DNA of 64,000 bases, from assembly GCA_965207575.1 (NCBI GenBank), contig OZ242288.1:3929879-3993878 (forward strand), written 5' to 3'. Below are positions 26,934-31,231 of this stretch, piece by piece. Both the position numbers and the translations under genes were made by a program. Under the pieces are notes generated by a model that did no database searches, was not told where the DNA came from, and worked only from the letters and a program-made list of their open reading frames with translations. This DNA is from an uncultured Candidatus Binatia bacterium (GTDB lineage: Bacteria > Desulfobacterota > Binatia > Bin18). Position 1 is the stretch's first letter; each line of letters starts with the position of its first letter.

Positions 26934-27425
26934 ATGAAACAATTACGCGTGATTACCGAGAAGTGTACGAGCTGCGTGCAGTGCGAGTTGGCTTGTGCCT
27001 TTGTCCAAACCGGGACCTTTCAGCCATCCCGTTCCGTTATTCGCGTCCATATCTTCGACGAGCAGGCCGTCTATGCGCCCTATACCTGCTTTCAGTGCGA
27101 TGAGGCCTGGTGCCTGACGGCCTGTCCGGTGAATGCGATCGGCATTGACCCGGACACGAACGCCAAGGTCGTGCTGGACGATGTGTGTGTCGGCTGTGCG
27201 GTCTGCACGGTAGCCTGCCCATACGGCACCATGTTCTACAATCCAGATAGCCACAAAGCCTTCAAGTGCGACCTGTGTGGCGGTGATCCGGCGTGCGTCA
27301 AGTCATGCCCAACCGGCGCACTCGAATACGTGGATATGGATCAGCCGGACTGGCTGGCCAGTTGGGCGGACAAAGTCAACCAGGGCTTTCAACATATGCA
27401 GGACGAAGAAGGAGGCAACGCATGA
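26934..27425 (+). CDS. aorA: poly-ferredoxin electron-transfer subunit of aldehyde:ferredoxin oxidoreductase (AorA-like)
   Basis: start moved to MKQLRV with AGGAGGG RBS; four CxxCxxC...CP motifs; directly precedes and overlaps (ATGA) the AOR gene. Confidence 0.75.
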   Translation: MKQLRVITEKCTSCVQCELACAFVQTGTFQPSRSVIRVHIFDEQAVYAPYTCFQCDEAWCLTACPVNAIGIDPDTNAKVVLDDVCVGCAVCTVACPYGTMFYNPDSHKAFKCDLCGGDPACVKSCPTGALEYVDMDQPDWLASWADKVNQGFQHMQDEEGGNA

Positions 27426-29281
27426 GCGCGACCAACACAATGCACGGCTGGACCGGGACTGTCCTGCGCGTCAATCTGACCACCGGCACTATCACCAAGG
27501 AGCCGCTGAACGCCGAATGGGCCAGAGACTATGTCGGCGGCCGCGGGCTCGGCGTCAAATATCTCTACGAAGAGATGGACCCCAGCGTCGATCCGCTCAG
27601 TCCGGAAAATAAGATGATCTTTGCCACCGGACCGCTGACCGGCACCAACGCATCCTGTGGCTCGCGCTATATGGTCGTTACCAAGGGCGCGCTGACCAAC
27701 GCCATTACCACCTCGAATTCCGGCGGCTTCTGGGGGCCGGAGATGAAATTCGCCGGCTACGACATGATCATCCTGGAGGGCAAGGCCGCCCGGCCGTCCT
27801 ACCTGTGGATCTATGACGACCGGGTGGAACTGCGCGATGCGACCCATCTGTGGGGCAAGACGGTCTGGCAGACCGAAGAGGCCCTGCGCGCCGAAATCGG
27901 CGTGCCGGACAGCATCATCGCCAGTATCGGCCCGGCCGGAGAAAACCTGGTGCGCTTTGCCTGCATCATGAACGACCTGCACCGGGCCGCGGGCCGGTCC
28001 GGCGTAGGGGCGGTGATGGGCTCCAAAAATCTCAAGGCCATTGCTCTGCGCGGCACCGGCGGCGTCTCTCTGGCCGACCCACAGGCATATATGGAAGGCC
28101 AATGGGCAATGAAGGAAAAGCTGCGGCAGTCGCCCGTGACCGCCGAGGGCCTGCCCATGTACGGCACCGAAGTGCTGGTCAACGTGATCAACGAGCACGG
28201 CGCCCTGCCGACGCGCAACCACCAGCAGACTGTCTTTGATGAAGCCGAAAACATCAGCGGCGAAACCCTGACCGAAACCCGCCTGGTCGCCAATAAAGCC
28301 TGTTTTTCCTGCACCATCGCCTGTGGGCGGGTCAGCACCCTGCCGGGCGAAGCTTCCTCGAAATACTCGGTCACCACCAATCCGCAGAACTGGAAAATCG
28401 CCGGGGAAGGCCCCGAATACGAAGCGGCCTGGGCCATGGGCTCGGAGTGCGGCGTGGGCGACCTGGACGCGCTGATCAAGGCTAACTGGCTGTGCAACGA
28501 CCTGGGTATGGATTCCATCAGCTTTGGGGCCAGCGTGGCCGCGGCCATGGAGTTGTTCGAGAAGGGCGCGGTCGGCCAGGACCAGACCGAGATTCCGTTG
28601 GAGTTCGGTAGTGCCGAAGCCCTCATCGCCATGGCCGAGAAGACCGCCTACCGGCAGGGCTTTGGTGATGCCGTGGCCGAAGGCTCCAAACGCATGACCG
28701 AAAATTTCGGTCGTCCAGAGTTCTTCATGGGCGTTCGCGGTCAGGAGTTTGCCGCATATGAAGCTCGTGCCATTCAGGGCATGGGCCTGGGCTATGCGAC
28801 CTCCAACCGCGGGGCGTGTCACTTGAAAGCCTATACGGTGGCGGCCGAAATTCTGGGCCTGCCGCGTCAGATGGACCCGCGCGCCACAGAAGAGAAGGCA
28901 GAGATTACCAAAATCTTCCAGGACGCGACCTCGACCGTTGACGCCACCGGCCTGTGTCAATTCCTCACCTTTGGGGTTGGTCTTGAAGAAATGCTGCCCC
29001 AACTGTCGGCCGCCACAGGCGTAACGTATACGCAGGAAGAACTGGTCCACATTGGGGAGCGTATCTGGAACCTGGAGCGGCTGTGGAACGAACGGGCGGG
29101 CTTCACCGGCAAGGACGACACCCTGCCCAAACGGATTCTGGAAGAGCCCATCCCATCCGGCCCGGCCAAAGGCGAGGTCAACCGTCTGGGGGAAATGCTG
29201 CCCGAGTACTACGAGCTGCGAGGCTGGGAGAAGGACGGCAAAATCTCCGAGGCAAAGAAGAAAGAGTTGGGGCTGGAGTAA
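27422..29281 (+). CDS. aorB: tungsten-type aldehyde:ferredoxin oxidoreductase, catalytic subunit (AOR family)
   Basis: ~620 aa; N-terminal GWTGTVLRVNLTTGTI...YVGGRGLGVKYLYEE... and ...ASIGPAGENLVRFACIMND...RAAGRSGVGAVMGSKNLKAI are AOR family hallmarks. Confidence 0.85.
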   Translation: MSATNTMHGWTGTVLRVNLTTGTITKEPLNAEWARDYVGGRGLGVKYLYEEMDPSVDPLSPENKMIFATGPLTGTNASCGSRYMVVTKGALTNAITTSNSGGFWGPEMKFAGYDMIILEGKAARPSYLWIYDDRVELRDATHLWGKTVWQTEEALRAEIGVPDSIIASIGPAGENLVRFACIMNDLHRAAGRSGVGAVMGSKNLKAIALRGTGGVSLADPQAYMEGQWAMKEKLRQSPVTAEGLPMYGTEVLVNVINEHGALPTRNHQQTVFDEAENISGETLTETRLVANKACFSCTIACGRVSTLPGEASSKYSVTTNPQNWKIAGEGPEYEAAWAMGSECGVGDLDALIKANWLCNDLGMDSISFGASVAAAMELFEKGAVGQDQTEIPLEFGSAEALIAMAEKTAYRQGFGDAVAEGSKRMTENFGRPEFFMGVRGQEFAAYEARAIQGMGLGYATSNRGACHLKAYTVAAEILGLPRQMDPRATEEKAEITKIFQDATSTVDATGLCQFLTFGVGLEEMLPQLSAATGVTYTQEELVHIGERIWNLERLWNERAGFTGKDDTLPKRILEEPIPSGPAKGEVNRLGEMLPEYYELRGWEKDGKISEAKKKELGLE

Positions 29282-29286
29282 AGGAG

Positions 29287-29422
29287 GTCTATTGAGTCAT
29301 TGGGTCTATTGAGTCATTGGGTCTATTGAGTCATTGGGTCTATTGAGTCATTGGGTCTATTGAGTCATTGGGTCTGTTGAGTCATTGGGTCTGTTGAGTC
29401 ATTGGGTCTGTTGAGTCGATTG
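29287..29422. repeat. tandem array A: 17-bp unit GTCT(A/G)TTGAGTCATTGG x ~7.5 (palindromic TGAGTCA core)
   Basis: read directly; five units with A then three with G at position 5; last unit degenerate; 17-nt period excludes coding. Confidence 0.9.
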
Positions 29423-29440
29423 AGTCTTTGAGACCCAAAG

Positions 29441-29530
29441 GACCCTAAAGACCCAAGAGACCCTAAAGACCCAAGAGACCCTAAAGACCCAAGAGACCCT
29501 AAAGACCCAAGAGACCCTAAAGACCCAAGA
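29441..29530. repeat. tandem array B: 18-bp unit AGACCCTAAAGACCCAAG x 5, approximately the reverse complement of array A
   Basis: read directly; AGACCC recurs every 9 bp on the top strand and is the complement of the GGGTCT recurring in array A. Confidence 0.9.
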
Positions 29531-29551
29531 GACCTACAAGGAACACACGTC

Positions 29552-30982
29552 ATGGCACACCACATCATTATTGGAGGGGGACCGGCCGGGGTGGCCGCAG
29601 CGGAAACGATCCGGGCGACAGCAGGCTCCGAAGCGCAGATCACGCTCATCTCCAATGAGCCCGCCTACTCGCGCATGGTCCTGCCCTACTATCTGGCGAA
29701 CGATATTCCGGAGCGGCATGTGCTGACCGGAGACGCGGCCTATTTCGAACAACACGGCATTACGTCCGTGTCGGGCCAGGTCGAAAAAGTCGATGCCCAG
29801 GCGCGCACGGTTACACTCGGTGACGGCTCAAGCCACACGTTTGATACCCTGCTCATCGCGACCGGCTCTTCGGCCCAACGTCCTCCTATTGCCGGCATTG
29901 ACCAGGAAGGCGTGTACACCTTCTGGACGCTCGAAGACGCAAAACAGGTCATGGCGAAAGCGCAGGGAACGCCCAGGGCGGTGCTCATTGGGGCCGGCTT
30001 TATTGGCTTCATCGTCTTGAACGCCATGGCCAAGCTGGACTGGAATCTCTCGGTGGTTGAAACCGAGGCACAGGTCTTGCCGCGCATGCTCGACGCCACT
30101 GGCGCGCAAGCGGTCGAAGGCTGGCTGACCAGCCAGAATGTAGCCGTTCATACCGGCGCGCAGGTCCAAAGCATTAGCCGTGAAGGTGAGGCACTCAACC
30201 TGTCGCTGAGCAATGGAGCAAACCTAAGCGCGGATATTGTCATTTTGGCTACGGGTATTCAGCCCAACCTGGGCTTTCTCAACGGCTCCGGTATCCACGT
30301 TGACGACGGCATCGTGGTTGACGACCGCATGCAGACCAATATTCCCGGCATCTATGCGGCCGGTGATGTTGCCGCCGGCCCGGACCTGCTGAATGGCTCG
30401 CCCGCGGTGCATGCGATTCAGCCAACGGCCGTGGACCACGGTCGGATTGCCGGCGCCAACATGGCCGGCCAGGAGACACACTATCCGGGCAGCCTGCTGC
30501 TCAACGTGTTGGATGTCATCAATCTGCACTGCGCCAGCTTTGGCCAGTGGCGGACAGATGCGAAGGAGTCGATCACCACCGTCTGGAACCCAACGCGCCC
30601 GATTTATCGTAAATACGTCTGGGACGGCGACCGCATGGTCGGGGCGCTGTTTGTCGGACCGATAGATGACGTCACCATGCTGAACGACGTCGGTATGGTC
30701 AAAGGACTCATTCAGACACAACAGGCCCTGGGAAACTGGGCAGACTACGTCAAAGAGAACCCGACCGATGTGCGCCGCGCCTATGTCGCTACCGGGACCG
30801 CGCAGAAACTGGTCAGTCATACCCTCTTGGGCGCACCCGCTACAGCGCGCGCCTACCGGGTAGACGGGAAGACACCCTCGGCCTGGCAAAAAGGCTCGCA
30901 CGGCCCGCTTATCGGCTCTCGCCCGGACGCGCTGGATACGCTTCCACGGACACCGACACCAGGCATTGAAAAGGGTGAATAA
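29552..30982 (+). CDS. aorC: FAD-dependent pyridine-nucleotide-disulfide oxidoreductase (AorC-like NAD(P)-linked subunit)
   Basis: 476 aa; HHIIIGGGPAGVAAAE and LIGAGFIGF dinucleotide folds; IYAAGDVA motif. Confidence 0.75.
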   Translation: MAHHIIIGGGPAGVAAAETIRATAGSEAQITLISNEPAYSRMVLPYYLANDIPERHVLTGDAAYFEQHGITSVSGQVEKVDAQARTVTLGDGSSHTFDTLLIATGSSAQRPPIAGIDQEGVYTFWTLEDAKQVMAKAQGTPRAVLIGAGFIGFIVLNAMAKLDWNLSVVETEAQVLPRMLDATGAQAVEGWLTSQNVAVHTGAQVQSISREGEALNLSLSNGANLSADIVILATGIQPNLGFLNGSGIHVDDGIVVDDRMQTNIPGIYAAGDVAAGPDLLNGSPAVHAIQPTAVDHGRIAGANMAGQETHYPGSLLLNVLDVINLHCASFGQWRTDAKESITTVWNPTRPIYRKYVWDGDRMVGALFVGPIDDVTMLNDVGMVKGLIQTQQALGNWADYVKENPTDVRRAYVATGTAQKLVSHTLLGAPATARAYRVDGKTPSAWQKGSHGPLIGSRPDALDTLPRTPTPGIEKGE

Positions 30983-30985
30983 TCG

Positions 30986-31231
30986 ATGCAGGTCAGTATC
31001 AAGCTCTTTGCCAATCTTCGGAAAAAGCTACCCAAAGGCTCTCTGGGGAAAGCGACGCTTGATCTCGCAGATCAGGCAACGATCAACGATCTGATTCACC
31101 AACTCGACATTCCTCTCGACCTGGCCCAGATGGTCCTGGTCAACGGCGAGCAGACCCGGGAGTTCGGCCAGGCGCTTGCGGACGGAGACCAGGTCAGCAT
31201 CTTCCCGCCGGTGGCCGGCGGGAGCGAATGA
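30986..31231 (+). CDS. MoaD/ThiS-family sulfur-carrier-like protein (C-terminal GG followed by two extra residues)
   Basis: 81 aa, ends ...IFPPVAGGSE; beta-grasp size; immediately follows aorC. Confidence 0.55.
   Translation: MQVSIKLFANLRKKLPKGSLGKATLDLADQATINDLIHQLDIPLDLAQMVLVNGEQTREFGQALADGDQVSIFPPVAGGSE

Follow-up and report, generated by a model that had tools for sequence, protein, structure and literature searches.

The spacer between aorB and aorC, two genes of a tungsten aldehyde:ferredoxin oxidoreductase (AOR) operon in a 64-kb stretch of DNA from an uncultured Candidatus Binatia bacterium (contig OZ242288.1; the whole stretch is hereafter called the window), is filled by one copy of a dispersed, multi-copy foldback element. 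This element resembles the STRRs (short tandemly repeated repetitive sequences) of cyanobacteria, and the same unit occurs at many intergenic sites in Binatia and in other phyla. On balance, we favor the reading that this spacer is an STRR-like copy without an open reading frame (ORF) and unstable in copy number, which in the aor mRNA would form a long double-stranded RNA (dsRNA) and probably act as a site of RNase III processing or of transcript stability; the RNase III step, taken alone, is held with less assurance than the reading as a whole. The parts of the element are the following.

29285..29427, plus strand: 5' arm (array A), 17 units TTGRGTCT(N), G/T-rich (Tandem Repeats Finder; cores at 8/9-nt spacing); the first unit is degenerate (AGGTC, 29285) and the remainder alternate between GGGTCT(A/G)TT (9 nt) and GAGTCATT (8 nt)
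29428..29430, plus strand: apical loop TTG, the symmetry center of the foldback (sequence and minimum free energy, MFE, structures), closed by pairs of GTCT 29424-29427 with AGAC 29431-29434
29431..29535, plus strand: 3' arm (array B), 12 units AGACCC(T/A)A(A/G), A/C-rich (Tandem Repeats Finder; inverted-repeat pairs I1-I25); the last unit is a degenerate GACCT at 29531 that pairs with AGGTC at 29285

Two tandem arrays in inverted orientation occupy the 270-nt gap between the two genes almost wholly, as an earlier note on this DNA, made from the sequence alone, had claimed. By Tandem Repeats Finder (TRF), array A runs from 29286 to 29432 with 8.6 copies at period 17 (96% matches), and array B from 29431 to 29534 with 5.8 copies at period 18 (97% matches) or, alternatively, 11.6 copies at period 9. 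The 17- and 18-bp periods given in that note are thus recovered, but as units they dissolve into a single 8/9-nt unit, TTGRGTCT(N), in which the core GRGTC is preceded by TT and followed by T and one variable base, the longer periods being compounds of two such units. Both arrays consist of this unit, inverted from one to the other, and the resulting foldback spans 29285-29535 (251 nt). It holds 29 units when the degenerate end units are included, 17 of them 5' and 12 of them 3' of the loop, with core-to-core spacings of 9 nt (18 times) and 8 nt (7 times). Such counts are far above chance: across the 64-kb window, the 17-mer is matched 13 times when up to 3 mismatches are allowed, where 0.11 matches would be expected, and the 18-mer 5 times, where 0.05 would be, both expectations being taken from shuffled sequence. 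As to the exact motifs, AGACCC does occur ten times, as noted before, while GGGTCT occurs seven times and not eight, the supposed eighth being AGGTCT at 29285; moreover, the TGAGTCA core, formerly taken for a perfect palindrome, is palindromic only about an unpaired central G.

The arms are 77-81% complementary and make an imperfect hairpin of roughly 110 bp that can form on either strand, which confirms the very long imperfect hairpin proposed earlier. In the MFE structures, 29285-29427 is paired with 29431-29535, so that the insert is looped out on a terminal stem of 20 bp or more, the mark of intervening sequence (IVS)-type elements. The folding energies and their z scores are as follows.

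Plus strand, RNA fold: -116 kcal/mol, z = -6.0
Minus strand, RNA fold: -123 kcal/mol, z = -7.0
Plus strand, DNA fold: -61 kcal/mol, z = -6.9

That the element is one member of a dispersed family was established by a pattern scan that required two adjacent units and used one representative genome per species. The pattern was found at 72 loci in other genomes, against about one expected by chance (an estimate that assumes uniform base composition), and a unit-level scan recognized 100 arrays within these loci. Eleven Binatia assemblies, which are metagenome-assembled genomes (MAGs), contribute 29 of the 72 loci, with up to 5 per genome, and the remaining ones come from Desulfobacterota, Syntrophobacterales, Aerophobetes, Latescibacterota, Hydrogenedentota, Anaerolineae, and others. 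The suggestion that the arrays might be a device specific to this operon is contradicted by this distribution, since the same arrays stand at 72 loci in related genomes and several times in single Binatia genomes, an outcome that the earlier note had itself named as the mark of a generic element. At least 14 loci consist of a GRGTC array followed 2-3 nt on by a GACYC array and represent about 8-10 independent sites; the G/T-rich arm lies 5' in every foldback and the opposite order was never seen. Orthologous sites across Binatia species retain the foldback with different unit variants and copy numbers, as in L028, L040, and L062, where it immediately follows the stop codon of a gene for a luciferase-like monooxygenase. 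Solitary arrays between co-directional genes have the A/C-rich strand in the sense orientation in 16 cases and antisense in 7, a bias that is suggestive only and is given no weight, in view of the crude ORF-based gene call and the orthology of some loci. In short-read MAGs, arrays are found at the extreme ends of contigs (L007, L039, L049, and L065, positions 1-150); arrays act as assembly break points and, therefore, copy numbers from short reads are lower bounds. Viral contigs gave 7 matches, a few of them arrays, with no sign of carriage by phages and no PF05635 gene found in the stretches scanned. Among these contigs, L172 (87-223, 1587-1666) and L175-L177 from IMG/VR contain TTGRGTC arrays, including two foldbacks of the usual polarity.

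At the aor locus itself, the element is present at identical borders in four independent assemblies (L081-L084), which read AAGGAG/GTCT on the left and AGACC/TACAAGGAAC on the right, the slash marking the border. In L081, whose AorB is identical and whose flanks match those of the window at 98.3-99.5% identity, the spacer measures 96 nt and contains 5 + 4 units, and in L082-L084, with flanks 91-94% identical, it measures 106 nt and contains 6 + 4 units; one contig among these three has a 'ptg' name and is possibly derived from long reads. The first unit is GGTCTGTT in L081 and GGTCTATT in the window, hence L081 is not a collapsed copy of the window allele. Together with the borders common to the four assemblies, this means that the element is no artefact and that both arms have expanded about three-fold in the lineage of the window. 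The assembly artefact that the earlier note had proposed to check in independent assemblies can thus be rejected, and its description of the arrays as contraction-prone is borne out, with 29 units in the window compared with 9-10 in same-species and sister assemblies whose flanks are 94-99% identical. More distant relatives have no arrays and have aorB-aorC spacers of 46-89 nt (L073, AorB 89% identical; L074-L080, about 85% identical). A conserved intercistronic stem in those spacers was considered and dropped, as their small hairpins fold no more stably than shuffled sequence does (z = -0.65 to +0.5), and the absence of the element from relatives with 85-89% identical AorB speaks further against its dedication to the aorB/aorC boundary. 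Thus, the element arrived or arose here only in the narrow clade of the window, and its arms grow and shrink by slippage. It can be expected that long-read assemblies will differ in length at the element and that short-read assemblies will break or collapse there.

The architecture is that of the cyanobacterial STRR hairpins and of the Xanthomonas GGGAATC pairs, although unit length and host differ, and the earlier statement that the arrays correspond to no described repeat family therefore does not hold. In cyanobacterial STRRs, the arrays have a 7-nt unit and fold into hairpins, in particular between hupS and hupL; a role in transcript stability or translational coupling has been proposed for them (PMC2670836). 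The hupS-hupL case of Nostoc and Anabaena and the present one have in common dispersed intergenic arrays of a very short unit, of which an inverted pair makes a hairpin between the cistrons of a multi-subunit redox enzyme. However, the STRR unit has 7 nt and belongs to heterocystous cyanobacteria, whereas the unit here has 8/9 nt (17/18 nt as a compound), reads TTGRGTCT(N), and belongs to Binatia; as for the many copies typical of STRRs, there are up to 5 strict-pattern loci per related Binatia genome and a single copy in the 64-kb window. What is new is, thus, the unit TTGRGTCT(N), its 8/9-nt period, and the phylum, for an STRR-like kind of element that is already known. In Xanthomonas campestris, about 186 intergenic GGGAATC arrays occur, 70 of them convergent inverted pairs (Rehm et al. 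2015, PMC4692102), with position and single or paired type conserved between species, length varying, and a G-quadruplex (G4) as the favored interpretation (PMC4692102). The window element is likewise a convergent pair of conserved position and variable length, with a unit of other length and sequence, and the G-tracts of the Xanthomonas unit have a counterpart only in the minus strand of array B, which fits G3N6, and not in array A.

The long stem that loops an insert out of its host transcript is also found in the 23S rRNA IVSs of Leptospira and Coxiella that contain an S23p/PF05635 ORF. The Coxiella 23S rRNA IVS has a PF05635 ORF, a 28-bp terminal stem, and tandem heptamers that vary between strains, and it is cleaved by RNase III in vitro, the termini having been determined by rapid amplification of cDNA ends (PMC4990558). 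In both cases, terminal inverted repeats form the stem; copy-variable tandem heptamers lie in the IVS stem beside the ORF, and ORF-less IVSs exist too. Nevertheless, IVSs interrupt rRNA helices, whereas the window element lies in an mRNA spacer between protein-coding genes; it has no ORF, while related ORF-carrying cassettes have the same arms; and its arms, made wholly of tandem units, form about 110 bp instead of 28 bp. The repetitive extragenic palindromic (REP) sequences, with their hairpin-forming doublets (REPINs) and REP-associated tyrosine transposases (RAYTs), are similar in being dispersed intergenic hairpin repeats, with one gene flanked by its cognate inverted repeat and many gene-less copies. 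REP functions include the stabilization of mRNA inside operons (malE-malF). However, a REP is an imperfect palindrome of 20-40 nt and not a tandem array of a non-palindromic 8/9-mer, and the flanked gene is a tyrosine transposase in one case and a PF05635 gene in the other; no RAYT gene was noticed near the arrays, although no search aimed at RAYT was made. Drosophila foldback (FB) transposons have long inverted arms of short tandem subrepeats, which vary in length and sometimes abut. Here the likeness is one of form only, as FB elements are eukaryotic, have much longer arms, and come with evidence of transposition. With respect to MITEs (miniature inverted-repeat transposable elements), which combine terminal inverted repeats with a target-site duplication, AAGGA stands on either side of the foldback (29282-29286 and 29538-29542), the right copy being the aorC ribosome-binding site (RBS). 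This pair may be due to chance or may represent a 5-bp target-site duplication, left by an insertion into what would have been a very short spacer; no target-site duplication was seen at the other foldbacks inspected.

In other genomes, TTGRGTC / GACYCAA arms bracket genes for PF05635 proteins (23S-rRNA-intervening-sequence / four-helix-bundle proteins) inside conserved operons, as in the following loci.

L006 (Binatia): 8 TTGGGTCTA units, PF05635 gene, 10 GACCCCAAG-type units, then the glmS start codon; order glmU, gene, glmS
L025 (Syntrophorhabdus): layout as in L006, ahead of asnB
L063 (Desulfobacterales): 27 units between asnB and the PF05635 gene
L178 (protein 95% identical to that of L006): order glmU, cassette, glmS
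L181-L186 (protein 71% identical to that of L006): order rmlC, cassette, rmlB-like gene

Taken together, these loci indicate that TTGRGTC / GACYCAA are the regular arms of one PF05635 subfamily, which inserts between the cistrons of conserved operons. The association is not limited to this subfamily. When metagenomes were scanned with an alignment built from five of these proteins, 80 loci were obtained, in which a tandem array of 7-9-nt units lies within 150 nt upstream of 62 of 76 PF05635 genes and within the same distance downstream of 59 of 67 (about 85%). The share of bases in tandem repeats is 29% in the PF05635 flanks, 3.1% in the rest of the loci, and 0.5% within the ORF. The flanking unit varies by lineage (GCAATGA, AGTGCTG, GAGTTAGG, GTTCATAAA, and others), and the similarity of flanks increases with PF05635 protein identity (Mantel r = 0.23; reached by 0 of 2000 permutations). 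Among the 45 two-sided cassettes, 32 have inverted arms, 8 direct arms, and 5 unrelated arms, and 22 of the 26 clearly polarized inverted cassettes have, on the coding strand, a G/T-rich arm ahead of the gene and an A/C-rich arm behind it, the same polarity as in the ORF-less foldbacks. Moreover, ORF-less arrays share the unit of the local PF05635 gene on the same contig in 42% of cases, compared with 12% in controls. Two PF05635 paralogues in L025 (1529-2058 and 4060-4560), about 34% identical, have GAGTC/GACCC-type and GGAGGC/GCCTCC-type arms, respectively, and thus the repeat unit tracks the cassette and not the genome.

The association extends to a cultured organism: in Xanthomonas campestris, a homologue of XCC0516 (PDB 2gsc) lies between accB and accC and has GGGAATC x4.4 on its upstream side and the complement x4.3 on its downstream side, as seen at the locus below; the paper on the GGGAATC arrays does not mention this gene (PMC4692102).

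L165 1921-2376: XCC0516-type PF05635 gene; likewise in L166-L170

The 128-aa construct of this PDB entry exceeds the 109-aa gene call, and the construct probably starts within the upstream array. Downstream of accC, the same locus has an unrelated 97-bp tandem repeat (L165 3858-4327, 4.9 copies, 90% matches). In L006 (7309-7908) and L178 (1460-2003), the PF05635 ORF continues into the downstream array and acquires repeat-encoded tails (TQPTQ..., DPTDPT...). The called PF05635 homologues range from 111 to 186 aa, compared with about 120 aa for the domain, and a regular-expression search for repeat-derived peptides in their tails gave partial support (25 of 60), since superseded by direct inspection of the loci. 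Direct-arm cassettes (L063 1224-1860, L097, L099, L110, L135, and L139) have the A/C-rich strand on the coding strand on both sides. PF05635 genes have also been reported inside cas operons (PMC3936711). No paper stating a general link between arrays and PF05635 genes was found in the literature searched, an absence that is no proof that the link is unpublished, and a search with the repeat-unit strings returned only primer matches.

We know of no catalytic activity of PF05635 proteins. It is conceivable, although we would put it forward only tentatively and with the doubts prevailing, that these proteins and the arrays of 7-9-nt units constitute one widespread two-part system, in which each subfamily travels with, and acts on, its own unit in RNA or DNA. 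If so, ORF-less arrays and foldbacks would be dispersed cis-sites, in a manner analogous to RAYT and REPIN, and the cyanobacterial STRRs, the IVS ORFs, and the Xanthomonas GGGAATC repeats would come under one mechanism. STRRs of the type of Mazel et al. were reportedly first described in 1990 and IVS ORFs, it is said, in 1993. In the reading that we favor, and apart from such a scheme, the window element would be the ORF-less counterpart of a PF05635 cassette, related to it as MITEs are to insertion sequence (IS) elements or REPINs to RAYT genes. The wider value of the analysis lies in the inverted arrays of 7-9-nt units around most of the PF05635 genes sampled, in many phyla, together with gene-less copies that have the same unit. 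This association connects the cyanobacterial STRRs, the rRNA IVSs, and the Xanthomonas heptamers and makes two long-standing puzzles approachable by experiment, and XCC0516 of X. campestris, with its solved structure, offers a tractable case.

The genes around the element form an AorABC-type operon, with the following features.

26934..27425, plus strand: aorA-like polyferredoxin, 163 aa (Pfam Fer4_11/Fer4_7; start as called in locus L081, which is 98% identical)
27422..29281, plus strand: aorB, catalytic subunit of the tungsten aldehyde:ferredoxin oxidoreductase, 619 aa (AFOR_N 6.9e-86, AFOR_C 1.7e-144)
29279-29281: aorB stop codon TAA
29538..29543, plus strand: aorC RBS AAGGAA, 2 nt beyond the hairpin base and unpaired in the MFE structure
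29552..30982, plus strand: aorC, FAD/NAD-binding subunit, 476 aa, ATG start (Pyr_redox_2 1.4e-54)
30986..31231, plus strand: aorD-like MoaD/ThiS protein, 81 aa (ThiS 3.2e-12); the gene order is the same in all relatives compared

The identification of the flanking genes in the earlier note is upheld, with the AFOR_N/AFOR_C gene ending at 29281 and the Pyr_redox_2 gene starting at 29552. The exact AorB protein is on record on 3 contigs, its best relatives are proteins from Candidatus Binatia MAGs (84-89% identity), and the aorC RBS is conserved as GAAGGA or GAGGA in the array-less relatives. One contig, of 4.71 Mb, has on record AorB, AorC, and the Macro-domain protein of the window together. 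In some Binatia relatives, a second AFOR-family gene lies a few kb upstream of aorABCD (L075 1-1806 and L078 1-1806).

Upon transcription of aorABCD, the 251-nt insert would double back to give an imperfect but nearly unbroken dsRNA of about 110 bp, and this looping-out would place the aorB stop codon (29279-29281) about 10 nt from the aorC RBS (29538-29543) across the base of the stem. By analogy with the stems of PF05635-carrying IVSs, the hairpin would most probably function as an RNase III processing site and/or as a barrier to 3'-exonucleases, and such processing or blocking would let the aorAB segment differ in stability from aorC-aorD. In Aromatoleum, the enzyme forms an Aor(AB)nC filament capped by only one AorC (PMC10413684), so that unequal expression at the aorB/aorC boundary is plausible, and a lower expression of AorC might be tolerated or could even be useful if the present enzyme is built likewise. 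Any effect on expression would be a by-product or an exaptation of a generic element and not the work of a dedicated regulator. For the aor locus, the result is deflationary: the arrays are a generic, unstable repeat that came to lie between two operon genes, and nothing unusual among operon features. If long intercistronic dsRNA stems of this kind are RNase III substrates, they would be a widespread source, so far unappreciated, of processing of operon mRNAs in uncultured bacteria.

Several observations weigh against this interpretation or set bounds to it. There is no second copy of the element in the 64-kb window, where neither the 17-mer nor the 18-mer occurs elsewhere. The unit is conserved across phyla at 7 of its 9 positions, more than a hairpin needs, and although the cores of the two arms pair, their inter-core spacer positions are non-complementary, so that pairing is not fine-tuned. 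Solitary arrays are common and 8 of the 45 two-sided PF05635 cassettes have direct arms, which the hairpin model does not explain; therefore, the hairpin cannot be the sole mode of action of the family. The invariant polarity of the foldbacks does not fit a pure hairpin model either, and the direction of transcription cannot explain it, because a foldback reads alike on both strands. Moreover, RNase III cleavage, the effect on stability, and the effect on AorC are matters that we only infer, and the derivation of foldbacks from cassettes is suggested by their common unit and polarity.

Part of this evidence would be accommodated if the units were putative binding sites, on DNA or on RNA, for a protein, of which the pentameric PF05635 protein is the obvious candidate; the arrays would then be a loaded platform and the hairpin would be secondary. 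The conservation of 7 of 9 unit positions across phyla, the lack of co-variation between the spacer positions of the arms, and the existence of solitary arrays and of direct-arm cassettes would all be expected of such sites. The layout also parallels that of RAYT genes flanked by their own REPs, and the XCC0516-type gene is flanked by GGGAATC, the heptamer of about 186 other sites (PMC4692102). In addition, unit type co-varies with PF05635 protein phylogeny, the L025 paralogues have different arms on one contig, and in 42% of cases, versus 12% in controls, ORF-less arrays have the same unit as the PF05635 gene on their contig. However, the co-variation fits equally well with an ORF and arms that are inherited or moved as one cassette, and binding by PF05635 proteins other than those of diversity-generating retroelements (DGRs) is itself putative. 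Moreover, a PF05635 gene is absent from the 64-kb window, and a period of 8/9 bp is off the DNA helical repeat. Judged from these sequence comparisons, a binding platform seems unlikely as the main function, with a modest chance of being correct.

A dedicated intra-operon attenuator or stability element, evolved to set the AorAB:AorC stoichiometry, would suit the position of the hairpin exactly at the aorB/aorC boundary, with its base adjoining the stop codon and the RBS, as well as its strength, and an excess of AorAB over AorC is expected from an Aor(AB)nC filament with a single cap (PMC10413684). Nevertheless, relatives at 85-89% AorB identity do without the element and have hairpins with z = -0.65 to +0.5, the same repeat stands at dozens of unrelated sites, and copy number varies three-fold within one species-level clade, which make such a device very improbable.

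Still less credence seems due to the idea that the spacer is a functionless minisatellite grown in place by slippage from a chance seed, the other arrays being convergent. Slippage as such is not in dispute: the perfect 17- and 18-nt iterations indicate that it is recent, copy number is polymorphic, and the expansions of the two arms are independent events, because they took place with different periods. However, convergence from chance seeds would have to produce a unit with 7 of 9 positions conserved in many genomes and phyla, an invariant foldback polarity, orthologous sites kept across Binatia species, and a specific association with PF05635 genes. A G4-forming repeat of the kind suggested for the heptamers of Xanthomonas and Nostoc, which would affect replication or transcription through the DNA itself, is the most improbable candidate of all: the minus strand of array B, (GGGTCTCTTGGGTCTTTA)n, reads as G3N6 x11 and fits the G3+N1-7 rule, and G4 formation by GGGAATC repeats has been studied by Rehm et al. 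(PMC4692102), but in array A GGG comes only once in 17 nt, array B is C-rich on its mRNA strand, and most PF05635-flanking units are without G-tracts (AGTGCTG, GAGTTCATA, AAAGTCTAT), so that G4 potential is not a property of the class.

Other candidate identities of the spacer were rejected. A promoter/terminator scan found no promoter-like or terminator-like site in it, and an intrinsic terminator was dismissed because there is no U-tract, the hairpin being followed by ACAAGGAACAC. It is not a CRISPR (clustered regularly interspaced short palindromic repeat) array, as had been recognized before, since its units are contiguous and there are no unique spacers, nor an array of plasmid iterons or a centromere-like array, as its neighbors are aor genes, a Macro-domain gene, and a peptidase gene, with no rep/par. 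An Rfam scan of the spacer returned only sub-threshold matches of the long-hairpin type, similar to miRNA precursors, for example with 42 bits against a threshold of 297. No ORF lies between the arms, and PF05635 was not found in the 64-kb window (tblastn, E<0.01).

As to coding potential, a 96-aa minus-strand ORF (29365-29655) was rejected as a translation of the repeat, (GSL)n. Array A has stops in every frame. The earlier argument that the period and in-frame stops exclude coding is right in that neither an ORF nor a start codon is present, but array B is open in two of the three plus-strand frames, including that of aorC, in which it reads (DPKDPR)n without a start codon. This open frame is probably meaningless. 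The genes aorB and aorC are in one reading frame, the (DPKDPR)n stretch (29431-29551) runs into the aorC start, and changes by whole 9-nt units would keep the register of the aorC frame.

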